Shown: positions 5,279-20,282, numbered from the stretch's first letter. The stretch is DNA of 64,000 nt from an uncultured Acidobacteriota bacterium (GCA_963777605.1 CAVZRV010000008.1:320001-384000); one strand, 5' to 3'. Made by a program: numbers and translations. The notes: generated by a model from the letters alone, not told the origin.

Positions 5279-5566
5279 TCAATCGAGGTCAAAGGGACGG
5301 GGTGGCGGCTCGTCGAGCTCGTCTTTGGATCGAAGTGCCTCCTCGAATTTCGCCTCGAGGCTGCTTTGGCGCTTCTTTTCATCGGCGAATGCTCTGGCGA
5401 AGATTTCGTCACTCTTCGTTTTCCGCTCCTTCTCTTGGCGGAGGGCGTCGTCAAACGAATACCCGGCCTTCTTTGCGTCTGAATGAATCACCAGCCCGGT
5501 CGTCGCGTCGATAATCAAACGCGCCTGACAGCAAGGGCAGGTTACTTCAAGTCTCTTCTTTTCCAT
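5279..5566 (-). CDS. Small conserved hypothetical protein with N-terminal CxCC motif and coiled coil
   Basis: MEKKRLEVTCPCCQARLIID...PPRPFDLD; likely start ATG at 5566. Confidence 0.7.
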   Translation of the reverse strand: MEKKRLEVTCPCCQARLIIDATTGLVIHSDAKKAGYSFDDALRQEKERKTKSDEIFARAFADEKKRQSSLEAKFEEALRSKDELDEPPPRPFDLD

Positions 5567-5690
5567 GTCGCCCAGTATCTCCGTTTCATCACATCCCGGG
5601 TGCTCTCTGTCCGGTGTGACAAGGGCAATGATCGACAGAATCTCCCACAATCTATACCACAAATCAAGGAGACCTCTGGGAACAGGAGGG

Positions 5691-8057
5691 ATGATTGCCG
5701 GTCAACGTCGCGCTACACTCGGGCGTGTGAAGGAGGAAAGGGTCCCCCTGCCCATCGACGAACACCTCGAAGGAATCAGAGACTCCGTTCGCCGGCATGG
5801 GCGCCTCGTGCTGGTCGCACCGCCGGGAACGGGAAAGACGACACGGGTGGCGCCCGCTCTGCTGACGGACGGGCCGGTCATTCTGCTCCAGCCGAGGCGG
5901 GTTGCGGCGCGCGCCATCGCCCGAAGAATCGCGTTCGAGAATGGCTGGGACGTCGGACGACAGGTTGGCTGGCAGGTGCGATTCGAAAGGAACTTTGGCG
6001 TTGACACTCAACTGCTTCTGGCAACCGAAGGAATCTTGACTGCCCGGCTCCAGTCCGATCCTCTTCTGAGCGGTTTTCGAACCGTGATCCTCGATGAATT
6101 CCACGAGAGAACGCTTCATGCGGACCTTGGGCTCACCCTGGTGAAAGAGGCTTGCCTCGCCCGGCCGGATCTGCGCCTGGTCGTCATGTCAGCAACCCTC
6201 GACGGTGCCGCGGTCGCCCATTTCCTGGGTGACTGTCCCCTTGTTGAAGTTGAGACCCGGCACTATCCCGTTGAGATCCGTTACGACGAGCGAATGACTC
6301 CGGCCGACGCTGTGCGGGCGGTTGCTGCTCGCCCGGGCGGCCACATTCTCTGTTTTCTCCCGGGCAGTCCTGAGATCGCCAGGGTGTCGGCAGAGCTGGA
6401 GCGAGTGCCACCTTCCGGATCGGTCCGGGTTCTTCCGCTCCACGGGGGTCTCGATGCCGGCTCCCAGGACCGGGCCCTGGCTCCAAGCGTGGAACGCAAA
6501 GTGATCCTGGCGACGAATATTGCGGAAACTTCGCTCACCGTCGAGGGAGTCTCCGACGTCGTTGACAGCGGGTACCATAAGGTCTTGCGCTTCGATCCGG
6601 CCAGGGCGCTGGACCGCCTGGAGTTGGAACGCATCCCCTCGGATTCGGCGGAGCAGAGAGCGGGAAGAGCGGGTCGGGAAGGACCTGGCCGCGCGATCCG
6701 GTTGTGGGATCCCCGGATGAGGCTTCGACTGCGCCGGGAGCCGGAGATCCGGCGCGTGGACCTGGCCGGGCCGTTTCTGGACGTTCTGGCCTGGGGCGGG
6801 GACCCCGCGCGCCTCGATTGGTTCGAGGTTCCACCAACGGAACGAGCCGAGGCCGCCATGCGTCTGCTTGAGGATCTTCGCCTGGTCGATGACGGCCACC
6901 TGACCTCCTTGGGACAAATGGCGCATCAGTTGCCGCTCCACCCTCGTGTCGCCACGGTCCTCTTGGCGGCTGGGGCCACACCCCGAGCGGCACGAGTCTG
7001 CTCGCTGCTCTCGGAAGGCCCGGTCGGGCCGCCGGGCAACCTGGCCACGACCTGCGATCTGTTCTGGGCATCCGACAGTCCCGAGCGGCTTTCCCGGCAT
7101 CTGAACCGGGTCGCGGAAGAGCTCTTCCGAAGGGGCAGATCTGTCCAGGGGGGACGGGATCTGGACGAATCGGACGAACGCCTGCTCAAGGCACTGCTCG
7201 CGGGTTTTCCTGATCGGGTGGCTGAGCGCCGTGAAGCCGGATCCGACCGTCTCCTTCTGGCGCTCGGACACGGCGCTCGGCTGGCCCGGGAAAGTGGAGT
7301 TCACGAGGGCGAGTACCTGATTGCTCTCGAGTTGATCTCCACCAGCCGGACGGGGAGTGGGGAATCTCTGGTCAGCCAGGCAGCCATGGTCCGGAAGGAG
7401 TGGCTGACACCTACGTCAGAGTCACTGACTCACGAATTCGATCCGGAGACCGAATCGGTTCGAGCGACCAGGCGCGAGTGCTATCTGGAACTGGTCCTGA
7501 CCGAAAGGCCGGCCAAACCCGATCCGGAACAGGCTGCCCGGATCCTGGAACAGGTCCTGCGAAGTCGAGAACTGGACGAGACCTCTCTCCGCCTGCTCTC
7601 CAGAGCTGAGTTGGCAGGGATAGCGATCGACCTGGACCGAGTCCGCAGGCTTGCCTGCGTTGGACAGGTCCGGCTTCCACGGCTCGACCTGACCTGGGGA
7701 CTGGACCGGCACCAGGTCGAGGAGATCGACCGGCTCTGCCCCGAAAAAATCCGCGTGCCGAGTGGACGCAGCGTTCTGATCGACTACACCGGGGGGGAGG
7801 CCATTCTCCGGGTCAAGCTGCAGGAACTTTTCGGGATGATCGAATCTCCGCGGATAGGACATGCCCGGCGGGCGCTCCTGATTGAACTCCTCGCTCCCAA
7901 CCAGCGACCGGTGCAGAGGACCCGGGACCTGCACAGCTTCTGGGCCAACACGTACCCTCAGGTTCGCAAGGAGCTCCGCGGCCGCTATCCCAGGCACCCC
8001 TGGCCGGAGGATCCCTGGACGGCTCATCCCACGGCCCGGACGAAGCCTCGAAAATGA
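5691..8057 (+). CDS. hrpB: ATP-dependent helicase HrpB
   Basis: APPGTGKTT, DEFHER, MSAT, ATNIAETSLT, QRAGRAGR and C-terminal ELRGRYPRHPWPEDP; RBS AGGAGG before ATG 5691. Confidence 0.95.
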   Translation: MIAGQRRATLGRVKEERVPLPIDEHLEGIRDSVRRHGRLVLVAPPGTGKTTRVAPALLTDGPVILLQPRRVAARAIARRIAFENGWDVGRQVGWQVRFERNFGVDTQLLLATEGILTARLQSDPLLSGFRTVILDEFHERTLHADLGLTLVKEACLARPDLRLVVMSATLDGAAVAHFLGDCPLVEVETRHYPVEIRYDERMTPADAVRAVAARPGGHILCFLPGSPEIARVSAELERVPPSGSVRVLPLHGGLDAGSQDRALAPSVERKVILATNIAETSLTVEGVSDVVDSGYHKVLRFDPARALDRLELERIPSDSAEQRAGRAGREGPGRAIRLWDPRMRLRLRREPEIRRVDLAGPFLDVLAWGGDPARLDWFEVPPTERAEAAMRLLEDLRLVDDGHLTSLGQMAHQLPLHPRVATVLLAAGATPRAARVCSLLSEGPVGPPGNLATTCDLFWASDSPERLSRHLNRVAEELFRRGRSVQGGRDLDESDERLLKALLAGFPDRVAERREAGSDRLLLALGHGARLARESGVHEGEYLIALELISTSRTGSGESLVSQAAMVRKEWLTPTSESLTHEFDPETESVRATRRECYLELVLTERPAKPDPEQAARILEQVLRSRELDETSLRLLSRAELAGIAIDLDRVRRLACVGQVRLPRLDLTWGLDRHQVEEIDRLCPEKIRVPSGRSVLIDYTGGEAILRVKLQELFGMIESPRIGHARRALLIELLAPNQRPVQRTRDLHSFWANTYPQVRKELRGRYPRHPWPEDPWTAHPTARTKPRK

Positions 8058-8368: not shown

Positions 8369-9286
8369 CTAAATCATCAGCAGGCGGTCGATCCGCTTGC
8401 TGACGTCGGTCAGGTAGGCGAGGTCACCCGCGTCGAGTTCGGCGATCACGGTGCCTTCGTAGCCGATTTCGTCCAGGGCCTTGCGGACTTCGGGCCAGTC
8501 GATGTCGCCGTCGCCAAGGTTGACGAACTCCGCGCTGAAGGGGCTGAACCCGGTGGTCATCACCTTGAAGTCTTTAAGGTGAACCTTCTTGATTCGGTGG
8601 CCCAACGTGCGGATCCAGTCCTGCGGGTAGCCAAAGATGACCACGTTCCCGACGTCGAAGTAGGCTCGGACCCAGGGGCTCTTGAACTCGTCAACGTAGT
8701 TGGCGAATTCCATCGGGCTCAGGAGGAACTTGTTCCAGACCTCCTCGACCGCGATGGCTACCTTCAGTTCTTCGGCAAGGGGGATCAGTTCCCGGATGTG
8801 TCTCTGAGAGCGCTCGTAGGCGGTCCGGTAAGGAGTTGCGGCATCGACCACGGCGGGGACCAGCAGCACGGCGTCGGCTCCCCACAGCGAGGCGTTGCGA
8901 AGCGACGTGCGCATGCCGTCGAGGCTCTTCTTGACGACCTCGGGATCTCCGCTCGAGAGGGGGTAGGGCCAGTGGGCCTGGTTCATCACGGAACTGAGGC
9001 GGATCCCGGCTTTCTCCGCCGCCGTCTTGATTTTCTCCGCCTCGCGCGGGTCTTCGACGGTATACCCTTCGACCACCTCGAAGCCCGCATCCGCGGCGAG
9101 CTTCAACCGCTCGTCGTAGCTGAGCTCTTCGGGCAGCATGCCCCACACCACGCCCTTGGTGAGCTTGGCCTTCTTTGGAACGGCCATCGCCGGAGGAGCA
9201 CCGGCCAGGGAACTTATGATTCCCGCACCCGCAACCACGGCACCAGAAGTCTTGAGAAAATCTCGACGAGAAGATTCGTTATTCAT
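8369..9286 (-). CDS. Tat-exported sugar phosphate isomerase/epimerase (xylose isomerase-like TIM barrel)
   Basis: SRRDFLK Tat motif; EEVWNKFLLSP, YFDVGN and VHLKDF motifs. Confidence 0.9.
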   Translation of the reverse strand: MNNESSRRDFLKTSGAVVAGAGIISSLAGAPPAMAVPKKAKLTKGVVWGMLPEELSYDERLKLAADAGFEVVEGYTVEDPREAEKIKTAAEKAGIRLSSVMNQAHWPYPLSSGDPEVVKKSLDGMRTSLRNASLWGADAVLLVPAVVDAATPYRTAYERSQRHIRELIPLAEELKVAIAVEEVWNKFLLSPMEFANYVDEFKSPWVRAYFDVGNVVIFGYPQDWIRTLGHRIKKVHLKDFKVMTTGFSPFSAEFVNLGDGDIDWPEVRKALDEIGYEGTVIAELDAGDLAYLTDVSKRIDRLLMI

Positions 9287-9394
9287 GGAAATCTTTCCTT
9301 CCGCAGGAGTTGTTGAGCAAAATTCTACCCCACAAGGTACACCCTTTGAATCTTCCGCGCGTAGCGGGAGGGGCGCCGCTGACCTGAAACTTCA

Positions 9395-9764
9395 ATTTGG
9401 ATGAACTGGAAGAACTGGATGATTTGGACGCGTTTGGATGGGAATTCGGGCGATCGGTGGAGAGCCAGGGACGTGATTATCGGCTGGATCCTGGTTCCGG
9501 GTCCGGTGCCAGACGTGGATGAGTGATGATCACAGGATCGGCGCCGGACTGGCCCCTGAAGGGGGCCTGTTTCCAGCCCAGGCATTTGCCTGGGTTCACG
9601 GCCCACCCATCAAGAATCCAGCCCTGAAAGGGCGGCACAGCTCTCCGGACGTGAAGAATCGGCGCGACCTTACAGGCCGCAATCGAAATGCAGGACCACA
9701 AACCCAGGGAAAGCCCTGGGCTGGAACCAGGGCGCCTTCCAGCGCCATGAAGCCCGGCGTCGCC
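9395..9764. mobile_element. Non-coding cassette type A, copy 1
   Basis: Near-identical to 9823-10181, 11400-11753 and 15849-16205; bounded by array repeats; contains REP-like palindromes. Confidence 0.8.
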
Positions 9765-9822
9765 AGTTTCACTCTTTGAATGGTCCGGCGGCGGCCGGGG
9801 GCGGGGCTGACTTGAAACTTCA

Positions 9823-10181
9823 TTCGAGATGAGTTGGAAGAACCTGGACGAATTGGATGCGTCTGGACGGGGATTCGGGCGATCGGTGGAGAGCCAGGGA
9901 CGTGATTATCGGCTGGATCCTGGTTCCGGGTCCGGTGCCAGACGTGGATGAGTGATGATCACGGGATCGGCGCCGGACTGGCCCCTGAAGGGGGCCTGTT
10001 TCCAGCCCAGGCATTTGCCTGGGTTTACGGTCCACCCATCAAGAATCCAGCCCTGAAAGGGCGGCACAGCTCTCCGGACGTGAAGAATCGGCGCGACCTT
10101 ACAGGCCGCGATCGCCTTGCCGGGACCACAGACCCAGGGCAAGCCCTGGGCTGAAACCAAGGCGCCTCCAGCGCCAGGTCC
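9823..10181. mobile_element. Non-coding cassette type A, copy 2
   Basis: Same sequence family as 9395-9764; bounded by repeats. Confidence 0.8.
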
Positions 10182-10238
10182 AGTTTCACTGATTGAATGG
10201 TCCGGCGCCGCCGGGGGCGGGGCTGACTTGAAACTTCA

Positions 10239-10516
10239 ATCGAGATGAGTTCCTGGTTCCTGGTTTCTCGTTTCTGGAGGGAAAGTAATCCAGGCATCCC
10301 TGCCTGATATGGCGGCCGGGCAAGCTTGCCCGGCGGAAGTCAACCTTCTCAATCCCAGGTTTATTGATTTCCGGGTTCTTCTGAAATCAGTCCGCCACCG
10401 GGACTGAATCGCACTTTCAGTGCTGCATTGCCGTCTTGGCTCCGATTCCCGGGGCGTTGCCGCCGGGCTGGAAATGACCCTGCGCCGTTGGCGCGCTCAT
10501 CTGGCGATGCTTCACC
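10239..10516. mobile_element. Non-coding cassette type C
   Basis: Unique 278-bp unit between repeats; perfect 20-bp palindrome GCCGGGCAAGCTTGCCCGGC (10315-10334) and REP-like hairpins. Confidence 0.72.
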
Positions 10517-10573
10517 CGTTTCACTGATTGAATGGTCCGGCGCCGCCGGGGGCGGGGCTGACCTGAAACTTCA

Positions 10574-10931
10574 ATCTCGGCAATTCCGCTAACTCTTGTA
10601 TTCTGTGAGAGATGCTGCTGCCGCTGAGAACAGCGAGTGGCGAGAAAAAAGTCGTCTATCGAGCCGTTTGAGCGTGATGGGGACACCACGCCCAATCTCC
10701 GCGAATCCGCATGAGCAGGCTTTTCAAAAGGGGCATGAACGGTGGCCCGGGGTGGCTGTCTGAATGGTCTATTCTGACCTTGAGGAGTGCTCCAAGAGCC
10801 TCACTAATGAATGATCGCACAGCCCGGGACCAAGCTGACTTTGGGGCAAAAATGCGCCAGTGCCTCGAGGGTCTTAACTGCCACTGCTCATGCCGCGCAG
10901 TGGATTTTAATCGATTGATGCGGCCGCGGCA
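10574..10931 (-). mobile_element. Cassette type B: transposase-free unit carrying a bridge/seekRNA-like module, copy 1
   Basis: 10771-10882 aligns by eye at roughly three-quarters identity with the IS110 upstream non-coding region 13579-13690. Confidence 0.8.
10732..10894 (-). ncRNA. Putative orphan guide (bridge/seek-like) RNA
   Basis: Conserved core shared with the IS110 non-coding end, enclosed by a 15-bp inverted repeat (10732-10746 / 10880-10894); strand assumed from transposase orientation. Confidence 0.6.
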
Positions 10932-10981
10932 AGTTTCACTCTTTGAATGGTCCGGCGGCGCACGACTGACCTGAAACTTCA

Positions 10982-11339
10982 ATCTTGGGCAATTCCGCTA
11001 ACTCTTGTATTCTGTAGAGATGCCTGCCGCTGAGAACAGCGAGTGGTGAGAAAAAGTCATTCTATATCAAGAGCCGTTTGACGTGATGGGGACACCACGC
11101 CCAATACTCCGCAAATGCCATGAGCAGGCTTTTCAAAAGGGGCATGAACGGTGGCCCGGGGTGGCTGTCTGAATGGTCTATTCTGACCCTTTGAGAGATC
11201 TGAGCTAATGGAATTTGATCGCACAGCCCGGGACCAAGCTGACTTTGGGGCGAAAAAATGCACAGTGCCTCAGAGGGTCTTGACTGCCACTGCTGATGCC
11301 GCGCGGTGGAGGCTTAATGGATTAGATGGGGCCGGGCCA
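10982..11339 (-). mobile_element. Cassette type B, copy 2 (noisy or degenerate)
   Basis: Colinear with 10574-10931 but with many small indels and substitutions. Confidence 0.7.
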
Positions 11340-11399
11340 AGTTTCACACACCTGAAATGGTCCGGAGCGCCCGGGGAGCGGGGCTGACTTGAAACTTCA

Positions 11400-11753
11400 A
11401 TCGAGATGAGTTGAAGAGTCTGGATGATTTGGACGCGTCTGGACGGGAATTCGGGCGATCGGTGGAGAGCCAGGGACGCGATTATCGGCTGGATCCTGGT
11501 TCCTGGTCCGGTGCCAGACGTGGATGAGTGAAGATCACAGGATCGGCGCCGGGCTGGCCCCTGAAGGGGGCCTGTTTCCAGCCCAGGCATTTGCCTGGGT
11601 TTACGGTTCCCCCATCAAGAATCCAGCCCTGAAAGGGCGGCACAGCTCTCCGGACGTGAAGAATCGGCGCGACCTTACAGGCCGCGATCGAGTTGCGGGA
11701 CCACAGACCCAGGGCAAGCCCTGGGCTGAAACCAAGGCGCCCAGCGCCAGGTC
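11400..11753. mobile_element. Non-coding cassette type A, copy 3
   Basis: Same family as 9823-10181. Confidence 0.8.
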
Positions 11754-11790
11754 CGTTTCACTCTCTGAAGGATCCGCGGAGGGCGCGGGG

Positions 11791-11968
<178 letters not shown>

Positions 11969-12141
11969 ATGATCGACAGCTCGGGACCAAGCTGACTTTG
12001 GGGCAAAAACGCGCCAGTGCCTCGAGGGTCTTAACTGCCACTGCTCATGCCGCGCAGTGGATTTTAGTCGATTGATGCGGCGCGGCAAGTTTCACTCTCT
12101 GAATGATCCGGCGCCGCCGGGGGCCGGGCTGACTTGAAACT

Positions 12142-13518
12142 TCATCCTTGGACCTCCACCGGAACCAGTTTGTAGCCCATGGTTTGGGCCGTGCTGGTGA
12201 GGGACTGGAACCGTTTGAGCCGGTAGCGTGCTTCGTAGGCTTCGGCGCCTTCGTCGACATAGTCCTGACCGAAGCGGAGCATGCGGTAGATGTACTGAGC
12301 CAGTTTGCGGGCGGTGGCGAAGACGGCGGTGCCCCCTCCTTTGCGTCGGGCGATGTGGCGGAAGTAGGCTCCCATCGCCGACTGCGAATGTTTCAGGGAC
12401 AGCGCGGCCATCCTCAGGACATTGGCCACGCGGGTGGAGCCGGTGCCCTGGCGCCGTTTGCGCAGGGGTTTGCCGGCGGAGTAGGCGGTCTTTGGACTCA
12501 GTCGCAGCCAGGACACGAAGTGCTTTTCGACCGGAAACGCCGACAGATCCAGGCCGATCTCGCTGAGGATGAGTTGGGCCGCCGGCGCAGCGATGCCGTC
12601 GATCCGGGTCAGGTCCACGCCGGTCACCCGCCACAGCATCGTGCGTCGCTGCTGCTCTCCCCGTTTGTTCAGCGCCCGCTCCTTGGTGGGCTGGGGATGG
12701 GGCCCCGGCTCCTGATCGGCTCGGTCGCTCGCCTCGAGTCGGTGGAGCACGCGTCCGATCTCCTCGTCATAGTCGGCCAGTTGACCCTGCACGAAGTCAT
12801 ACCACTCCAACGCTTTGCCCAGGTTGAACAGGTGTTCCTCCCGCCACGTCCCCGTCAGATGCTCCGCTATTTTGGCTTCCGACTTCCGACAGCGCCGGTC
12901 CCGCAAAGCCGCCAGTCGAAACGGATCCCGTTCGCCGCCGACCATCGCCCGCACGATCGCCATTCCGGTCTGTCCCGTCAGATCCGTCACCGCCCGGTGC
13001 ACCTGCACGTTCATCTGGTCGAGCGCCTTCTGCATCATCTGCACCGCCTGCCCCGCCAGCCTCACCAGTCCGGCCCGCTCCCGCTCGAGCGCCCGCAACT
13101 GACAGATCGCTTCGGCGGGTCGGAACGATCCCCGCAGCAAACCACAACTGTGCAGCAACTGGATCCACTGGCAATCCTTGATGTCGGTCTTGCGGCCCGG
13201 GACGTACTTCAACTGCCGCGCATTGACCAGCACCACTTCGAATCCCCGCGACACCAACAGCTCGTACAGCGGGATCCAGTACACCCCGGTCGCTTCCATC
13301 GCCACCGATTCGATCCTGTCGGCCTCGAGTCGGTCCAATACCAACTCCAACTCCGGTGTCGTCGTCCCAAAACAAAGGACCTTCAACTGGCCCGTCTCCC
13401 GATCGGGCCAACACCCGGCGCTTTCGCACGAACCCAGATCGATTCCCGCCACCCGCTCCCGGATCACTCGCAAATCCTGTTGACGCTTCCGACTTCTCGA
13501 CTTCCGCTTCGATCTCAT
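12142..13518 (-). CDS. IS110-family DEDD recombinase/transposase (458 aa)
   Basis: AGIDLG, AMEATGVYW and RKTDIKD (DEDD); C-terminal IDGIA...LSEIGLDLSAF...LSPKTAYSAGK...ATARKLA; RBS AGGAGGA; stop TGA abuts the inverted repeat. Confidence 0.96.
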   Translation of the reverse strand: MRSKRKSRSRKRQQDLRVIRERVAGIDLGSCESAGCWPDRETGQLKVLCFGTTTPELELVLDRLEADRIESVAMEATGVYWIPLYELLVSRGFEVVLVNARQLKYVPGRKTDIKDCQWIQLLHSCGLLRGSFRPAEAICQLRALERERAGLVRLAGQAVQMMQKALDQMNVQVHRAVTDLTGQTGMAIVRAMVGGERDPFRLAALRDRRCRKSEAKIAEHLTGTWREEHLFNLGKALEWYDFVQGQLADYDEEIGRVLHRLEASDRADQEPGPHPQPTKERALNKRGEQQRRTMLWRVTGVDLTRIDGIAAPAAQLILSEIGLDLSAFPVEKHFVSWLRLSPKTAYSAGKPLRKRRQGTGSTRVANVLRMAALSLKHSQSAMGAYFRHIARRKGGGTAVFATARKLAQYIYRMLRFGQDYVDEGAEAYEARYRLKRFQSLTSTAQTMGYKLVPVEVQG

Positions 13519-13541
13519 GCTAGCTTTGTCCTCCTGGTGAA

Positions 13542-13704
13542 TCGGCACAGGCTCGGGCTCGAGGTGGCGTGAATTTGGATTCTGACTTCGGGGAGTGCCC
13601 TGAGCGGCCTCGCCAATGAATGATCGCCTCACTCGAAACCAGGCTGACTTTGGGGCAACATGCTCCAGTGCACAACGGGTCTGAACTGCCCGGGCCTGTG
13701 CCGA
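13542..13704 (-). ncRNA. Putative bridge/seekRNA of IS110 copy 1
   Basis: 17-bp closing inverted repeat (13542-13558 / 13688-13704) and internal hairpins; contains GATCATTCA and AAGTCAG, which match the element junctions. Confidence 0.65.
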
Positions 13705-13793
13705 ACGCAAGCATAGCCGACTCTCGCAGGCTTGGCTCAGTTTCACTCTCTGAATGGTCCGGCGGCGGCCGGGGGCGGGGCTGACTTGAAACT

Positions 13794-15170
13794 TCATCCT
13801 TGGACCTCCACCGGAACCAGTTTGTAGCCCATGGTTTGGGCCGTGCTGGTGAGGGACTGGAACCGTTTGAGCCGGTAGCGTGCTTCGTAGGCTTCGGCGC
13901 CTTCGTCGACATAGTCCTGACCGAAGCGGAGCATGCGGTAGATGTACTGAGCCAGTTTGCGGGCGGTGGCGAAGACGGCGGTGCCCCCTCCTTTGCGTCG
14001 GGCGATGTGGCGGAAGTAGGCTCCCATCGCCGACTGCGAATGTTTCAGGGACAGCGCGGCCATCCTCAGGACATTGGCCACGCGGGTGGAGCCGGTGCCC
14101 TGGCGCCGTTTGCGCAGGGGTTTGCCGGCGGAGTAGGCGGTCTTTGGACTCAGTCGCAGCCAGGACACGAAGTGCTTTTCGACCGGAAACGCCGACAGAT
14201 CCAGGCCGATCTCGCTGAGGATGAGTTGGGCCGCCGGCGCAGCGATGCCGTCGATCCGGGTCAGGTCCACGCCGGTCACCCGCCACAGCATCGTGCGTCG
14301 CTGCTGCTCTCCCCGTTTGTTCAGCGCCCGCTCCTTGGTGGGCTGGGGATGGGGCCCCGGCTCCTGATCGGCTCGGTCGCTCGCCTCGAGTCGGTGGAGC
14401 ACGCGTCCGATCTCCTCGTCATAGTCGGCCAGTTGACCCTGCACGAAGTCATACCACTCCAACGCTTTGCCCAGGTTGAACAGGTGTTCCTCCCGCCACG
14501 TCCCCGTCAGATGCTCCGCTATTTTGGCTTCCGACTTCCGACAGCGCCGGTCCCGCAAAGCCGCCAGTCGAAACGGATCCCGTTCGCCGCCGACCATCGC
14601 CCGCACGATCGCCATTCCGGTCTGTCCCGTCAGATCCGTCACCGCCCGGTGCACCTGCACGTTCATCTGGTCGAGCGCCTTCTGCATCATCTGCACCGCC
14701 TGCCCCGCCAGCCTCACCAGTCCGGCCCGCTCCCGCTCGAGCGCCCGCAACTGACAGATCGCTTCGGCGGGTCGGAACGATCCCCGCAGCAAACCACAAC
14801 TGTGCAGCAACTGGATCCACTGGCAATCCTTGATGTCGGTCTTGCGGCCCGGGACGTACTTCAACTGCCGCGCATTGACCAGCACCACTTCGAATCCCCG
14901 CGACACCAACAGCTCGTACAGCGGGATCCAGTACACCCCGGTCGCTTCCATCGCCACCGATTCGATCCTGTCGGCCTCGAGTCGGTCCAATACCAACTCC
15001 AACTCCGGTGTCGTCGTCCCAAAACAAAGGACCTTCAACTGGCCCGTCTCCCGATCGGGCCAACACCCGGCGCTTTCGCACGAACCCAGATCGATTCCCG
15101 CCACCCGCTCCCGGATCACTCGCAAACCCTGTTGACGCTTCCGACTTCTCGACTTCCGCTTCGATCTCAT
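13794..15170 (-). CDS. IS110-family DEDD recombinase/transposase (458 aa), second copy
   Basis: Translation identical to copy 1 except one D/G change near the N-terminus. Confidence 0.95.
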   Translation of the reverse strand: MRSKRKSRSRKRQQGLRVIRERVAGIDLGSCESAGCWPDRETGQLKVLCFGTTTPELELVLDRLEADRIESVAMEATGVYWIPLYELLVSRGFEVVLVNARQLKYVPGRKTDIKDCQWIQLLHSCGLLRGSFRPAEAICQLRALERERAGLVRLAGQAVQMMQKALDQMNVQVHRAVTDLTGQTGMAIVRAMVGGERDPFRLAALRDRRCRKSEAKIAEHLTGTWREEHLFNLGKALEWYDFVQGQLADYDEEIGRVLHRLEASDRADQEPGPHPQPTKERALNKRGEQQRRTMLWRVTGVDLTRIDGIAAPAAQLILSEIGLDLSAFPVEKHFVSWLRLSPKTAYSAGKPLRKRRQGTGSTRVANVLRMAALSLKHSQSAMGAYFRHIARRKGGGTAVFATARKLAQYIYRMLRFGQDYVDEGAEAYEARYRLKRFQSLTSTAQTMGYKLVPVEVQG

Positions 15171-15193
15171 GCTAGCTTTGTCCTCCTGGTGAA

Positions 15194-15356
15194 TCGGCAC
15201 AGGCTCGGGCTCGAGGTGGCGTGAATTTGGATTCTGACTTCGGGGAGTGCCCTGAGCGGCCTCGCCAATGAATGATCGCCTCACTCGAAACCAGGCTGAC
15301 TTTGGGGCAACATGCTCCAGTGCACAACGGGTCTGAACTGCCCGGGCCTGTGCCGA
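15194..15356 (-). ncRNA. Putative bridge/seekRNA of IS110 copy 2
   Basis: Same sequence as 13542-13704. Confidence 0.62.
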
Positions 15357-15448
15357 ACGCAAGCATAGCCGACTCTCGCAGGCTTGGCTCAGTTTCACTC
15401 TCTGAATGGTCCGGCGGCGGCCGGGGGCGGGGCTGACTTGAAACTTCA

Positions 15449-15791
15449 ATCGAGATGAATTGAAGACCTAACACTTGTATTCTCGTTTCTGGAGAGATTA
15501 TTATTGAGGCATCTGGGCCAGGACGTGATTATTTCGGCTGGATCTGGTTGGTAAGGTGACTGGATGAGTGATATTTTAACAGATCGGCCAAAAGGGCCCC
15601 TAAAGGGGGCCTGTTCTTCAGGATTTACTGGGTTCTTTTTTTATCGGCTTCCACTCATCAAGAATCAGCGCTGAAAGTGCTGAACAATGCCATCTCGGAC
15701 GAATGAGAATCAGAGGGAGACTTAGCCGCACAGCCGAGAAAAAAGACTCAGTGAAGCCCTTTGATAGCGCTGAACTGGGGAAGTTTCACCA
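15449..15791. other. Chimeric/noisy cassette (patchwork of A, B and C fragments)
   Basis: Contains C-like TCTCGTTTCTGGAG, B-like CTTGTATTCT and GAGAAAAAAG, and A-like GGACGTGATTAT, GGCCCCTAAAGGGGGCCTG and CATCAAGAATC. Confidence 0.6.
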
Positions 15792-15848
15792 AGTTTCACT
15801 CTTTGAATGATCCGGCGCCGCCAGAATTAAGACTGACTTGAAACTTCA

Positions 15849-16205
15849 AAATGGATGACTGGAAGAACCTGGATGATTTGGACGCGTTTGGATGGGAATT
15901 CGGGCGATCGGTGGAGAGCCAGGGACGTGATTATCGGCTGGATCCTGGTTCCGGGTCCGGTGCCAGACGTGGATGAGTGATGATCACAGGATCGGCGCCG
16001 GACTGGCCCCTGAAGGGGGCCTGTTTCCAGCCCAGGCATTTGCCTGGGTTCACGGCCCACCCATCAAGAATCCAGCCCTGAAAGGGCGGCACAGCTCTCC
16101 GGACGTGAAGAATCGGCGCGACCTTACAGGCCGCGATCGCCTTGCCGGGACCACAGACCCAAGGCAAGCCCTGGGCTGAAACCAAGGCGCCTCAGCGCCA
16201 GGTCG
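15849..16205. mobile_element. Non-coding cassette type A, copy 4
   Basis: Same family as 9395-9764. Confidence 0.8.
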
Positions 16206-16262
16206 AGTTTCACTCTCTGAATGGTCCGGCGGCGCCGGGGGCGCGGCTGACTTGAAACTTCA

Positions 16263-16555
16263 ATTTGGATGAACTGGAAATCCTGGATGATTTGGACGCG
16301 TCTGGATGGAGATTCGGGCGATCGGTGGAACTCAGAAGCCTGGTTCTCGGCTGGATCCTGGATACCCCGATTTCAGAACGCGAGTGTCAGCGAGCGCGGC
16401 TCCGGGCGATGGTGAGTCAGCGGAAGTGCTGCCGGAGGCCGGAACCGCGGGATGGAGTCAAGATCCGAGGTGGGCGATGGATGAAGGCCTGGATACGCGC
16501 GCGCTGACTTGCGTACTGAATGCGTGAAAACCGCGATCCCGGGCCGGAGTTGGCA
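16263..16555. mobile_element. Non-coding cassette type D
   Basis: First ~95 bp homologous to type A, followed by a different inverted-repeat pair (CAGAACGCGAGTGTCAGCGAGCGCG ... CGCGCGCGCTGACTTGCGTACTG). Confidence 0.68.
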
Positions 16556-16562
16556 AGCTTCA

Positions 16563-17074
16563 CTATTCGAATGATCCCCGCAGCGCGGAATCACTGGAAC
16601 CCGCCTGAAACTCGGGATCGATCGTCGCGAAATGGAGCAGGTCAAAGAATCCCAGGCGAAGCTGCTTCAACGCAAAGCTCAAGGCGATCAGCGGAAGGGT
16701 CGCGGATACCAGCAAAGTAATCCAGAATGCGGTTGGAATCTGGATTGTGCCCTGGATCGAATCGAGGATCACTAGACTGGCACCAAGTGTCAGGACCCAA
16801 TATGCCCATAAGAGAAGGCGCTTCCAGTGGCTCGAGGCCGCAGGAGTCGTGTCACGTGCCAAGGCGGCCTCAAGTTCCTGGTCAAACTGGGGAGAGAGGT
16901 GGGGAACGGGAAGCGCTGCCAAGCTTGGGCCAGTTCCTGGTGACCGAAAAGAGTATCCCGGCACTGATCGCAGATCTCGAGATGGGACTCCCATTGCCTG
17001 CGCTCTTCGCCCGATTTGAATGCTCCTTCGAAGAACCGCTCAATCTGGCCCAGGCTGGGGCAGTACTTATCCAT
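16563..17074 (-). CDS. Zinc-finger (zf-HC2) membrane anti-sigma factor (frameshifted near 16900-16960)
   Basis: HLEICDQC motif in the 5' frame; two hydrophobic helices in the 3' frame; directly downstream of an ECF sigma factor. Confidence 0.75.
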
Positions 17075-17075
17075 T

Positions 17076-17645
17076 TCAGACCTTGCCTCTCAGTGAACGT
17101 CCCAGCAACTTTCTTGCCCGGAACAGGTGAGACTTCACCGTCGAGGATTTGAGATCGAGATACTGCGCAATCTCCGCCACCGACTGGTCAAGCCAGTAGT
17201 GCAGGAAGACGACCGACCGAGCGGGTTCGGGAAGTCTCTCCACGCACTTCAGAATTCGCTCGTCGCGTTCGTGGTCGCTCGCCTTCCGCAGGGGACTTCG
17301 CCGGGGGGATGCCTGCGAGCGAAGCGTGCTTTCGCCCGAGTGGTGGAATTTAAGGCGGGGTTTCCGGCGCCAGTCGATCGAACGATTAAATGCAATCCGG
17401 TAAAGCCACGTGCTGAAACGGCTGTCAAAGCGAAACTGCTTCAGGTCCCGGTGGACCGTCAGAAACACCTCCTGCACGACTTCTTCGGCTTCTTCCGTGA
17501 ACGAGGGCCCGAGAACCGAGAGAACCAGTCGAAACACTTTCTCCTTGTAGCGACGAACGAGAATCGCAAAGAAGTGATCCTTCCCCGTCTTCAAATAGTG
17601 CCCGACCAGTTCCTCGTCTTTCCAGAGATCGGAGTTGTCGCTCAC
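17076..17645 (-). CDS. ECF RNA polymerase sigma factor
   Basis: AEEVVQEVFL, FSTWLYRIAFN and TVKSHLFRARKLL; start codon approximate. Confidence 0.92.
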   Translation of the reverse strand: MSDNSDLWKDEELVGHYLKTGKDHFFAILVRRYKEKVFRLVLSVLGPSFTEEAEEVVQEVFLTVHRDLKQFRFDSRFSTWLYRIAFNRSIDWRRKPRLKFHHSGESTLRSQASPRRSPLRKASDHERDERILKCVERLPEPARSVVFLHYWLDQSVAEIAQYLDLKSSTVKSHLFRARKLLGRSLRGKV

Positions 17646-17713
17646 CGCAGTTGGGGGAACGGTGTCCTTCAGCGGAACACAAAAGAAGTCGAGAGAGTAA
17701 GTCGCAGACAACA

Positions 17714-18145
17714 CTATTTTGATTTTAGGTCTTCCTTGAAACCCTTGCTCAAGAGGAAGAACAGAAGAAGGCCGAAGCCACAGAGTATTGGGATCAATCC
17801 GACCGTCCAGACGGGCTGAAGATCTAAGTTCCCGGAGAAGTGAAAGGCGATGCAAATGCCGATTCCAGCCGGAATCAGGAACAGTCCGAACCCCAGAGCG
17901 ATGAGCCGAACCCAAACGAGGACTTTCTCCTGCAGCGAACCATCCGACATCACCGTGTGTTCCGGGAGTTGGAGATTATCGATCGGCAGTCCTTTTTCCA
18001 TGGCCATAATCCTTTCCTTGTGAATCATTTCCCGCTGTTTGACCAGCGTCTGATCGAGCAGAAAGCGTTTTAGCATTCCGTAGCCGACAAATCCGAAGAC
18101 GACCAGCAAGAGAAACAACAGCACTTCCATCGTCCCTACCTCCAT
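17714..18145 (-). CDS. Membrane protein (DUF6249-like) heading the ECF operon
   Basis: TM helix, then HKERIMAMEKG, then two TM helices. Confidence 0.7.
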   Translation of the reverse strand: MEVGTMEVLLFLLLVVFGFVGYGMLKRFLLDQTLVKQREMIHKERIMAMEKGLPIDNLQLPEHTVMSDGSLQEKVLVWVRLIALGFGLFLIPAGIGICIAFHFSGNLDLQPVWTVGLIPILCGFGLLLFFLLSKGFKEDLKSK

Positions 18146-18425
18146 TTCTTACGAGACACCCTTTGGACGGAAGCGGCGGAGTTCCGGTTGCAGATTTCTT
18201 GAGAACCCGGGCAGGACAGTCTCCGATGTCGAAAGTGATGAAGGCTAAGACTGGCGCGAGCATGCCGTTGCTATTGCTTCGGGTCGGGACTTCTTCTCTC
18301 CTTTCAGGATGCGTTCACCAAGCCTGAAGTCGGAGTAAACAACTCGAGCTTCAGTCTCGAGTTCCCCACGAATCGATTGACCCGGCAAGTTGGGCTCTCT
18401 ATAACTGGTGTTGCGGGAGGTTCAC

Positions 18426-20282
18426 GTGAAGCATGCTCCGATCACGGTTTCAATCGTCCTCACTATCATCCTTGCTGCGGCAGCCGGTCTGGTCCAGCCT
18501 CAGGGTGAGTTCGTCTCTCCCTTCGAGATTCGAAAGGAGATGATCCCCATGCGGGACGGAATCCGCCTGAACACTCGGATCTTCATCCCCCGCGACCAGC
18601 CGGAGCCGCTCCCCATCATCCTGATTCGGAGCCCTTACGGTGTTGCGGGGGCAGAAGGGAACTTCGTTACTGCGCTGAAGACCCTGGCTGATGAAGGCTA
18701 CATCTTTGCCTTCCAGGACATTCGCGGCAAATTCGAGTCGGAAGGCGAGTTTGTGATGCAGCGCCCGGCTCGCGAGCCAGGAGATTCCACTGCTCTCGAT
18801 GAAGGAACCGACACCTACGACACGATCGAGTGGATGCTTGAGAACGTGACCCCGAACAACGGCCGGGTCGGCATGCTGGGAGTATCCTATCTCGGTTGGA
18901 CGACCATCATGGCGTCGCTGGAGCCTCACCCTGCATTGAAGGCGATTTCCCCCCAGGCTTCACCCGCCGATATGTGGATTGGGGACGACTTCCACCACAA
19001 CGGCGCATTCCGCCTCAGCTATGCGTTCGAATACGCCTACCAGGTGGATGGTGGTAAGGCGTCCCAGCACTTTCCCTTTGACCGCTACGACACCTATGAC
19101 TGGTACCTGGCTCTGGGCCCGCTCTCCAATGTCAATCCGCGTTTCTTTCACGGGGAGATCCCAACCTGGAACGACTACGTGGCCCATCCCGACTACGATG
19201 CCTTCTGGAAGCGTCAGACTCTGATTCCCCGGATCACCGGTGTGAAGGTGCCCACCCTGAACGTCGCGGGCTGGTGGGACCAGGAAGACTTCTACGGCCC
19301 CCTGCGTATTTATGAAACATTGGAAAGGTACGATTCAGCAGGTATGAACTACCTGGTGGTGGGTCCCTGGAACCATGGAGGATGGGCACGGGGAAACGGT
19401 TCCAGCCTTGGTCCCATCCCTTTCGACAGTTCCACCTCCCGCTACTTTCGTGACGAGGTGCAGGCCCCGTGGTTCGCGTATTTTCTGAAGGACAAGGGCC
19501 GGCTGCAGCTTCCGGAAGCGCTCACCTTTGAAGCTGGGTCGAACCGTTGGCGACGATGGGACTCGTGGCCGCCCCGCTCCCGGGTCGAGCGCCGTGACCT
19601 GTACTTCAGTTCCGACGGAATCCTGGCCGATATGGCACCCGAGGAGGGAACTGGAGCATTCGATAGCTACGTCTCTGACCCGGCTCACCCGGTTCCCTAC
19701 CGCCACCAGCCGATCCAGGCGACCTATTTCCCGGGTGGTTCCTCCTGGAGCACGTGGCTTGTTGAGGACCAGCGCTTCGTCGATGACCGGGCCGACGTTT
19801 TGAGCTGGGAGAGCGCTCCCCTGGAGCAGGAACTCACGATAGCCGGGGAGGTCGTGGCCCATCTCTTTGCATCTACCAGTGGAACTGACGCGGATTGGGT
19901 CGTCAAGCTGATCGACGTCTTTCCGGAGTACTACCCGGAGAATTGGGAACTGGCCGGTTACCAGTTAATGGTCTCAAACGAGGTCTTTCGTGGCCGATAC
20001 CGGGAGAGTTTCGAGAAGCCGGAACCGATCGAAGCCGGCGAGGTCCTGGAATACAACTTCAGTCTCCACACTCAGAATTACTCATTCCTCAAGGGACATC
20101 GAATCATGGTCCAGGTCCAGAGCACCTGGTTCCCTTTGATCGACCGAAACCCGCAGACCTTCGTAGAGAACATCTTCAAGGCGGGGGCCGCGGATTTTCG
20201 GGTTGCCGAAAACCGCGTTTACCGTACCGCCGAGTTCCCGTCCGGTGTTTCCATTCCCGTGGTTGCCGGCCCTCCTGAGTGA
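18426..20282 (+). CDS. CocE/NonD family hydrolase (alpha-amino acid ester hydrolase-like)
   Basis: IPMRDGIRL, QDIRGKFESEG, nucleophile motif GVSYLG, GDDFHHNGAF and GPWNHGGW; signal peptide. Confidence 0.93.
   Translation: MKHAPITVSIVLTIILAAAAGLVQPQGEFVSPFEIRKEMIPMRDGIRLNTRIFIPRDQPEPLPIILIRSPYGVAGAEGNFVTALKTLADEGYIFAFQDIRGKFESEGEFVMQRPAREPGDSTALDEGTDTYDTIEWMLENVTPNNGRVGMLGVSYLGWTTIMASLEPHPALKAISPQASPADMWIGDDFHHNGAFRLSYAFEYAYQVDGGKASQHFPFDRYDTYDWYLALGPLSNVNPRFFHGEIPTWNDYVAHPDYDAFWKRQTLIPRITGVKVPTLNVAGWWDQEDFYGPLRIYETLERYDSAGMNYLVVGPWNHGGWARGNGSSLGPIPFDSSTSRYFRDEVQAPWFAYFLKDKGRLQLPEALTFEAGSNRWRRWDSWPPRSRVERRDLYFSSDGILADMAPEEGTGAFDSYVSDPAHPVPYRHQPIQATYFPGGSSWSTWLVEDQRFVDDRADVLSWESAPLEQELTIAGEVVAHLFASTSGTDADWVVKLIDVFPEYYPENWELAGYQLMVSNEVFRGRYRESFEKPEPIEAGEVLEYNFSLHTQNYSFLKGHRIMVQVQSTWFPLIDRNPQTFVENIFKAGAADFRVAENRVYRTAEFPSGVSIPVVAGPPE

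Follow-up and report, generated by a model that had tools for sequence, protein, structure and literature searches.

The window analyzed here is a 64,000-nt stretch of an uncultured Acidobacteriota genome (GCA_963777605.1, CAVZRV010000008.1:320001-384000), corresponding to C8:320001-384000 of a 6.73-Mb, 53-contig bin with 96.7% completeness and 5.68% contamination. It contains an array of units that includes two tandem copies of an IS110-family insertion sequence (IS). Between positions 9336 and 16595, a ~58-nt sequence occurs 13 times in one orientation and bounds 12 units, which run A, A, C, B, B, A, partial B, IS, IS, X, A, and finally D. A 25-nt pattern search returned 10 matches at ≤3 mismatches, compared with 0 expected from 100 shuffles, all on the plus strand and inside 9766-16231. 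Three extra copies were recognized by direct reading or at a looser threshold, at 9336-9391 (degenerate), 11341, and 16557-16612 (degenerate). The repeat and pattern searches therefore confirm the 13 co-oriented copies and the order of 12 units reported in a first-pass annotation made from the sequence alone. Its description of ten non-coding units with IS termini holds for the termini, which are common to the units, but unit seven amounts to no more than the final ~160 nt of a B unit.

Array anatomy and the ~58-nt junction

Elements are read in the sense of the transposase gene (minus strand), in which the core is AG, equivalent to CT on the plus strand. The features of the array are as follows, with left end (LE), right end (RE), and coding sequence (CDS) abbreviated.

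9336-9378, minus strand: degenerate LE fragment (relic), from direct reading and a weak hidden Markov model match; first core CT at 9379-9380
9381-9806, minus strand: element 1, unit A, non-coding passenger; RE end GACCTGAAACTTCA, 42-nt LE
9809-10222, minus strand: element 2, unit A
10225-10557, minus strand: element 3, unit C
10560-10965, minus strand: element 4, unit B1, without transposase; bridge-RNA-like gene at 10731-10894
10833-10842 and 10772-10781, minus strand: putative guides of B1, AAAGTCAGCT and AAGGTCAGAA, respectively
10968-11383, minus strand: element 5, unit B2, ~87-89% identical to B1; bridge-RNA-like gene at 11140-11300
11386-11789, minus strand: element 6, unit A, with the LE continuing into the homopolymer tract
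11792-11968: homopolymer tract (161 T, then 16 G) that hides part of the array and is probably an assembly artefact
11969-12128, minus strand: element 7, a partial B unit reduced to its LE-proximal ~160 nt (B1 positions 238-359)
12131-13780, minus strand: element 8, IS copy 1, 1650 nt; CDS 12142-13518, bridge-RNA-like gene 13542-13702
13642-13651 and 13580-13589, minus strand: putative guides of IS copy 1
13783-15432, minus strand: element 9, IS copy 2, 1650 nt; CDS 13794-15170 (458 aa)
15171-15432, minus strand: non-coding LE of IS copy 2, 262 nt; bridge-RNA-like gene 15194-15354
15294-15303 and 15232-15241, minus strand: putative guide 1 and guide 2 of IS copy 2
15435-15832, minus strand: element 10, unit X, AT-richer and A-like (72-73% identity to A units), the sole copy in the genome
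15835-16246, minus strand: element 11, unit A
16249-16593, minus strand: element 12, unit D, whose LE is degenerate (GCTTCAC at 16557); last core CT at 16594-16595

The ~58-nt sequence is the junction of neighbouring elements and not a free-standing recombination site. On the plus strand it consists of ~42 nt of one LE, the CT core, and ~14 nt of the RE of the next element. In the gene sense, the LE starts with CCCCGCC, followed by a G+C hairpin, GGACCATTCAGAG, and GTGAAAC, and the RE ends with GAAGTTTC-ARGTC, with the core AG lying between elements. Half-copies occur where elements abut unique DNA; on the plus strand such elements start with ..CT-GACYTGAAACTTCA and end with ..GTTTCAC..GGCGGGG-CT-GACYTG. 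From these half-copies, the sequence described earlier as a site is not free-standing like attC but the RE/core/LE junction of adjacent elements.

Of the 153 LE copies found in the genome (see below), 136 could be anchored, 70 with the RE of the next element after them and 66 terminal. The exact sequence CTGAC follows 19 of the 66 terminal copies (~1.8 expected), and among these 19 the subsequent bases include Y in 18, T in 13, and G in 14. The base Y tracks the right-hand unit, being C before all seven full B copies and T before all four IS copies. It thus belongs to the right-hand unit, and the crossover lies to the left of it, at CT. The junction looks palindromic because of a sub-terminal inverted repeat (xxGTTTC in the RE and GAAACxx in the LE), which covaries across relatives.

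The two IS units of the window are 99.94% identical, with the transposase gene on the minus strand and a likely CDS of 458 aa. The 262-nt non-coding LE precedes the CDS, and the stop codon is located ~11 nt from the RE end of the element. In both IS units, the protein matches PF01548 (1.6e-20) and PF02371 (7.8e-10), corresponding to a DEDD RuvC-like domain and a C-terminal Tnp domain, as well as NF033542, “IS110 family RNA-guided transposase” (220.8 bits; cut-off 140), in agreement with their earlier description as complete IS110 elements. The protein searches were run with a 436-aa version that starts 22 residues further in than the 458-aa CDS. The genome contains four IS copies, namely the tandem pair in the window and two on contig C24, and a PF01548 search of the genome found no other gene. 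An IS110-type guide-RNA-using recombinase, which the first-pass annotation had placed behind the units, is the only plausible mobiliser found.

Guides of a bridge-RNA-like non-coding RNA

The LE of the IS encodes a two-loop, bridge-RNA-like non-coding RNA (ncRNA), which was aligned across the IS, B1, B2, and 12 relatives. The fold consists of a long closing helix around two stem-and-internal-loop domains, with 41 pairs, 19 of which show compensatory changes. Paired cells amount to 94.2%, compared with 83.3% in shuffles (0/500 reaching this value) and 31-55% in slid controls, and the covariation score is 0.358 versus 0.157 in shuffles (0/500). An Rfam search gave only sub-threshold matches, to mir-4667 (25.8 bits versus 68) and RUF6-5 (22.9 versus 70), and none for the ncRNA.

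Two candidate guides in the loops of the IS ncRNA match the ends of the element. Guide 1 reads AAAGTCAG(CC), and the LE of the IS starts with CC, while guide 2 reads GAAGTCAG(AA), and the RE of the IS ends with CAAGTC-AG. By analogy with the relatives, we propose that the guide in the 5′ loop, AAAGTCAG plus CC, recognizes the left half of the target and the core, and that the guide in the 3′ loop, GAAGTCAG, recognizes the element's own RE end and the core, that is, the donor. The two guides of the IS are nearly identical. Because of this near-identity, the element would be aimed at the tail of its own kind, which would lead to stacking. As a separate observation, the ncRNA stretch that begins at guide 1 and runs to the donor loop's 5′ strand has the sequence AAAGTCAG-CC...GATCATTCATTGG and parallels, in the same sense, the DNA junction CAAGTCAG-CC...GGACCATTCAGAG (15171-15432, minus strand, and all passenger LEs). 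This parallel could point to a further contact with the LE or to a remnant of the RNA's origin. The junction-site profile also has weak matches (10.2 bits) inside the B units.

The relatives were surveyed through 79 loci with proteins 39-65% identical to the IS protein, in metagenome-assembled genomes (MAGs) labelled Opitutales, Acidobacteriota, Bryobacterales, Terriglobia, Planctomycetota, and others. Their LEs share the arrangement CCCC-(10 nt)-TGGGTCCGAG...CTCCCC-(10 nt)-TCC, with two variable 10-nt stretches. In four genomes, the element boundaries are unambiguous because the copies are dispersed in unique DNA, and guide 2 equals the RE end plus AG in all four (TTTCGGGTCAG/AGGGTCAGAA; TTTCAGACAAG/GAGACAAGAA; TTTCAGGTCAG/CAGGTCAGAT; TTTCACACCAG/ACACCAGCAT). 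Guide 1 equals the left flank, AG, and the first two LE nucleotides (GGTC-AG-CC, GGAGCC-AG-TC, and AAGCC-AG-TC). The guide scan scored 14 distinct relatives, and a 15th (L045) gave no guide 1. A 7-9-nt exact match for guide 2 was located directly after the constant GTTTC in 13 of the 14 (L051 included; none in L071), and a guide 1 match of at least 6 nt at the LE boundary in 12 of the 14.

Tandem or head-to-tail IS copies were also identified in the Opitutales and Bryobacterales MAG relatives. In a genome of the same order (G029), which has 15 IS copies that are 55-56% identical, guide 1 (AGGTTAG) corresponds to the RE end of the adjacent sibling, while guide 2 (AGCTTAG) matches the RE of the IS itself, with another LE directly after it. 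The ~58-nt sequence is not above background in 29 of 30 related genomes, a set that includes one genome marked as unpublished (G018), on which nothing else here depends; the exception is a variant in G029, which also has the IS. Relatives with differing guides, for example the Terriglobia and Planctomycetota families, sit in other repeats or in unique DNA. The flanks of the relative at L073-L076 in a Planctomycetota MAG are a palindrome, GTACGGAGCC-AG-GCTCCGTAC, a target resembling a repetitive extragenic palindrome (REP) and matched by guide 1. Short tandem repeats with guide matches adjoin a locus in a Terriglobia MAG (L052:4340-4440) and the RE side of L058/L060 in a Bryobacterales MAG; one of these repeats is the 14-nt CAGTGGTCAGTTTT, and one is a 75-nt repeat ending in GTTTCACACCAGC.

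Passenger units across the genome and alleles of the locus

The first-pass annotation envisaged a system organized at one locus. A 22-nt pattern from the site, however, occurs 142 times in the genome (0 for the control), and a profile search identified 153 LE copies at 90 loci. These comprise 60 single sites, 17 pairs, 11 triples, and two large arrays, that of the window with 11 copies above the threshold and that of C24 with 15. The sites are co-oriented in 29 of the 30 multi-site loci. Genome-wide matches to the dispersed unit families number 69 for A, 67 for C, 24 for D, and 8 for B, always abutting a site in the same orientation. An RE-end motif lies upstream of 103 of the 153 LE copies, although the background of this motif is high (276 matches versus 110 for the reversed control). 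The spacings between LE and RE motif fall into discrete size classes of 60-120 nt (19), 120-200 nt (8), 260-320 nt (23), 320-380 nt (32), and 1500-1800 nt (4). In total, there are ~100 complete passenger copies and four IS copies, a ratio of roughly 25 to 1.

A profile of the ncRNA core has 12 copies in the genome, in four IS, seven full B units, and one partial B unit. As only IS and B are matched, units A, C, and D are not cryptic bridge RNAs of this type, and B is a transposase-less element that keeps a bridge-RNA-like gene. The donor guide of B1, AAGGTCAG, fits the RE variant of B itself, CAGGTC-AG (7/7 full B copies), whereas the IS guide GAAGTCAG fits CAAGTC-AG (4/4 IS copies). This difference between B and IS in donor guide and RE is a compensatory change within one genome. 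The earlier suggestion that some cassettes supply alternative guide RNAs is thus borne out for one unit type, B, which carries its own variant guide RNA. Of the A units, 13 have one RE variant and 13 the other.

Units A, C, D, and X and the shorter units have only the ends (~42-nt LE and ~14-25-nt RE), with no gene and no bridge RNA. A Pfam search (E ≤ 0.01) of eight open reading frames (ORFs), seven from units A, B, C, and D and one flanking, returned no match, and inspection shows that an indel puts the longest small ORF common to the A copies out of frame. Judged from their sequences, units A, C, D, and X appear to be non-autonomous passengers similar to miniature inverted-repeat transposable elements (MITEs), being short and non-coding, with the ends of the parent IS and, apart from X, dispersed copies. 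At one intergenic spot, the same stop codon is followed by a ~150-nt short element on C15 (46500-46700) and by a D-like, a B, and a short unit on C21 (3000-3900), which shows different occupants in two alleles.

The locus of the window is itself represented by further alleles within the bin. Contig C24 (13.8 kb) is the same locus from a related strain, with flanks 92-99% identical to those of the window and a unit series that reads A A C B B B A A A A IS IS A′ A D. Several units of C24 are nearly identical to one another (a3-a6, 99%; b1-b3, 99-100%; IS-IS, 99.9%). One array position holds different units in the two alleles (X versus ax, 63% identical). A third, more distant allele, C25:29000-36000, has flanks 80-87% identical and no array, and holds in its place a 1.2-kb insert similar to C10:8367-9235. 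Given these two further alleles of the locus, the bin must mix related strains or species.

Proposed stacking by tail-targeting guides and its alternatives

We consider the array to be a head-to-tail stack of one IS110-group element, present as two tandem copies, and its non-autonomous relatives, produced by a guide that targets the element's own tail; we give this reading a probability of about 0.7. It draws on the array anatomy, the fold and covariation of the ncRNA, the guide and end matches, and the genome-wide distribution, all of which are direct observations. We infer that the recombinase moves the units and that each step of the array arose by insertion and not by unequal crossing-over. 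As the target guide is similar to the donor guide, the preferred target would be the tail of an element of the same family, and each insertion would leave a family tail at both new junctions. A pile-up of co-oriented elements would follow, and with it both the head-to-tail arrays and the CT-GACYTG beside terminal copies. The general rule that a normal insertion splits its target, stated in the first-pass annotation, would still apply, with a target that resembles the tail of the element. Units A, C, D, and X and the shorter units may be mobilized in trans, since they retain LE and RE, while B would be a deletion derivative that retains a bridge RNA with a donor guide matched to the RE variant of B itself.

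Several points weigh against stacking by tail-targeting. The exact CTGAC follows only 19 of the 66 terminal copies, with 29 others retaining four of the five bases and 18 none, and conservation beyond the guide match (G at +3, often GAA) suggests that some of the apparent targets are relics of older tails. The right-half guides (right target guide, RTG, and right donor guide, RDG) were not found. All four IS copies are at this one locus while ~100 passengers are elsewhere, which is odd if any tail is targeted. The alleles within the bin include no clean empty site; the sole informative pair (C15 versus C21) consists of different elements, and the array-less C25 holds its other 1.2-kb sequence. 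No circle junction and no transcript were obtained, and the short-read contigs cannot tell a circle from a head-to-tail junction. The assembly is also faulty inside the array, and the near-identical neighbours on C24 (a3-a6, b1-b3, and IS-IS) are explained equally well by unequal crossing-over.

The last point leads to an alternative that we regard as unlikely, in which a few insertions founded the array, and its later growth and variation came mainly from the ~58-nt junction repeats, through homologous unequal crossing-over or slippage during replication, and not from guided re-insertion. The near-identity of adjacent copies would be expected in this case, as would two strain alleles that differ mainly in the copy number of neighbouring units, and a 2026 preprint reports that IS110 modules and non-coding units are commonly duplicated in tandem (10.64898/2026.08.14.744561). 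However, crossing-over leaves unexplained why ~100 complete passengers are spread over 90 loci, why the co-orientation is strict, why guide 1 matches the tail of the family itself, and why the two alleles hold different unit types (X and ax) at the same position.

The first-pass annotation had interpreted the locus as an RNA-guided analogue of an integron, with cassettes that include alternative guides. On such a reading, the locus would be a dedicated platform that captures, reorders, and expresses unrelated cassettes. The cassette-like layout with one junction per unit, the difference in unit content between the two alleles of the locus, the variant guides of the B units, and the restriction of the IS copies to the two large arrays are all compatible with this idea. 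On the other hand, the ends of the elements themselves form the junction, identical kinds of units and junctions are found without the IS at 89 further loci, and no more than one or two bases distinguish the two guide sets. In addition, the units are without genes, and no promoter, attI-like entry site, or coding cargo was seen. A tyrosine recombinase search (PF00589) gave 27 matches in the genome and none in the window, with the nearest on the same contig at C8:18557. The shared termini, the IS110-type mobiliser, and the B guides are retained from this proposal, while the platform as a whole is very improbable.

An assembly artefact that chained or collapsed dispersed copies deserves even less weight, although the assembly does give some cause for suspicion. 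Apart from the 161 T and 16 G inside the array (11792-11968), three more long poly-T tracts are present elsewhere (C7:1048962-1049350, C31:258375-258877, and C31:262596-263432), making four long tracts (five runs, spanning 161-837 nt); the bin has 53 contigs and 5.68% contamination, and the public short-read contigs break at every junction. As the tract in the window is read as an artefact, the number of units in the central part of the array is uncertain. Nevertheless, the second contig, C24, shows a matching general arrangement (A A C B.. IS IS .. A D) between flanks 92-99% identical, unit pairs and triples lie inside long contigs at 28 other loci, and the related IS is tandem in other long-read MAGs. 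Twenty public sequencing runs from 15 studies contain 10-26% of the sampled words, with no RNA run among them. Short-read contigs (Logan) over 11975-17300 end inside every junction and are uninformative on unit order, circles, or expression. A contig corresponding to one IS unit (1644-1645 nt, 23-24 differences) was present in two of four runs (X2 and X3), and X4 gave 1535 nt with 18 differences. The read depth is ~17 in X2 and X3 and 7.7 in X4, with ~9-95 in the junction bins and almost no coverage of the unique right flank. An IS unit ~98.5% identical occurs in independent soil-type metagenomes.

REPs and bacterial interspersed mosaic elements (BIMEs) are host-owned palindromes independent of any particular IS, usually in alternating orientation. 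That the ~58-nt sequence is such a host repeat, merely targeted by the IS in the manner of many IS110 members, can be given next to no credence: its 142-153 copies are intergenic and partly palindromic with a G+C hairpin, but 29 of the 30 multi-site loci are co-oriented, both parts of the sequence are the LE and RE of the IS itself and homologous to the ends of relatives from other phyla, the half-copies coincide precisely with the points at which an element meets unique DNA, and only the IS-bearing G029 among the 30 related genomes exceeds background.

Other repeat arrays were also considered. Arrays of the CRISPR or tandem interspaced guide RNA (TIGR) type have short conserved repeats that alternate with unique short spacers, whereas the “spacers” here are 280-1650 nt long and are themselves repeated families. 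Integron attC sites have the structure R″/L″..L′/R′ with AAC..GTT cores, and integron cassettes usually have a promoterless ORF. Like integrons and clusters of attC sites lacking integron-integrases (CALINs), the array has one imperfect palindrome per unit, co-oriented units, and strain-variable content. Unlike them, its “site” derives from the elements' own ends, and its units are dispersed at 90 loci. By inspection, the palindrome reads GTTTCA..TGAAAC and not AAC..GTT, and with this wrong polarity, no integrase (IntI) in the window, and non-coding units, the array is not an integron or CALIN, in line with the first-pass annotation, which did not recognize it as CRISPR, integron/CALIN, or TIGR. 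The IS1111-attC group and the REP-targeting IS110 members insert into repeated hairpin-forming sequences of the host or of integrons, whereas the repeat here belongs to the element family itself.

The closest parallel is ISPpu9 of Pseudomonas putida KT2440, for which the available text describes a non-coding module, MITEPpu9 (ssr9), with the end boxes of the IS and head-to-tail with it (PMC12288879). According to the same text, ISPpu9 targets REP sequences, recombines at AG, and mobilizes MITEPpu9, with circles demonstrated experimentally, and MITEPpu9 is one module type with eight copies that encodes a small RNA and is tandem in some strains (PMC12288879). As in that case, the IS here lies head-to-tail beside non-coding modules with end boxes, extra copies occur elsewhere, and the core is AG in the gene sense. 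Compared with MITEPpu9 as described there, the present system has at least five passenger types and ~100 complete copies against four IS, and it is known from sequence data alone; compared with ISPpu9, it has arrays of 12-15 units, one passenger type with a bridge RNA, and an apparent preference for its own tail. The ISPpu9 paper was the sole result of a literature search that combined bridge RNAs and MITEs with IS110 (PMC12288879).

Array formation by IS110 elements has also been reported on a broader scale, with non-coding units accumulated in tandem beside the transposase (n = 468), whole modules repeated in tandem (n = 437), and unit boundaries at the expanded loci that keep donor (LD) matches (10.64898/2026.08.14.744561). 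The available text of that report remarks that IS110 insertion does not regenerate the target, and it does not describe genome-wide passenger dispersal or bridge-RNA-only units (10.64898/2026.08.14.744561). In contrast to those loci, the target guide here matches the element's own tail, so that a usable left half-target would persist at each junction. No description of bridge-RNA-only elements or of tail-targeting was found in the literature passages covered, including those of 10.64898/2026.10.21.760802. IS110-linked MITE-like modules and tandem non-coding units have already been published, and the locus is a rich variant of these and not an RNA-guided integron.

The IS621 system, as far as its available description extends, has a target loop 5′ and a donor loop 3′ in the bridge RNA, left guides in the sense of the left half plus core, guides that include the core, and a bridge RNA that works in trans (PMC11208160). 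The element in the window resembles it in the DEDD and Tnp domains of the recombinase, the LE-encoded ncRNA with two internal loops, the target loop 5′ of the donor loop, and the CT/AG core in the guides. It differs in that the protein is only distantly similar to the IS621 transposase (PDB 8wt6, 8wt6_A; E 2.1e-5), the ncRNA is without an Rfam match, the sub-terminal inverted repeat (xxGTTTC / GAAACxx) is longer, and the left guides for target and donor are nearly identical.

A bolder extension, which we hold to be doubtful, is that these elements form a tail-targeting clade in which the target guide copies the donor guide. The arrays would be excised, reordered, and re-seeded as single- or multi-unit circles, and the B units would be free-living bridge-RNA genes that reprogram a recombinase encoded elsewhere, giving a two-part RNA-guided cassette system with A, C, and D as parasites. 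Copy-out and “half-match” recombination, as outlined in the accessible parts of two reports, make multi-unit excision from such arrays plausible (10.1101/2025.10.25.684509, 10.64898/2026.08.31.748434). If true, such a cassette system would be functionally nearer to an integron-like shuffling platform than to an ordinary IS.

Bridge recombinases are under development as programmable genome editors, and natural cases show what their guide logic permits. A natural coincidence of target and donor guides predicts self-stacking and repeated local insertion, and the co-varied donor guide and end of the B unit suggest that bridge RNAs can persist and spread as separate genes. The genome also provides an example in which non-coding hitchhikers outnumber the autonomous IS. 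Self-stacking contrasts with the published remark, in the text available, on the lack of target regeneration by IS110 insertion (10.64898/2026.08.14.744561).

The neighbours of the array are ordinary genes, encoding a xylose-isomerase-like TIM-barrel protein with a twin-arginine translocation (TAT) signal (8369-9286, minus strand), an extracytoplasmic function (ECF)-type sigma factor (17076-17915, minus strand), an HrpB-type helicase (5565-8057, plus strand), and an X-Pro dipeptidyl-peptidase (18408-20282, plus strand). On the array-less C25, ~70 nt to the left of the right flank, there is an inverted 12-nt match to the family RE end (TGAAGTTTCAA), which may be due to chance or may be a relic.

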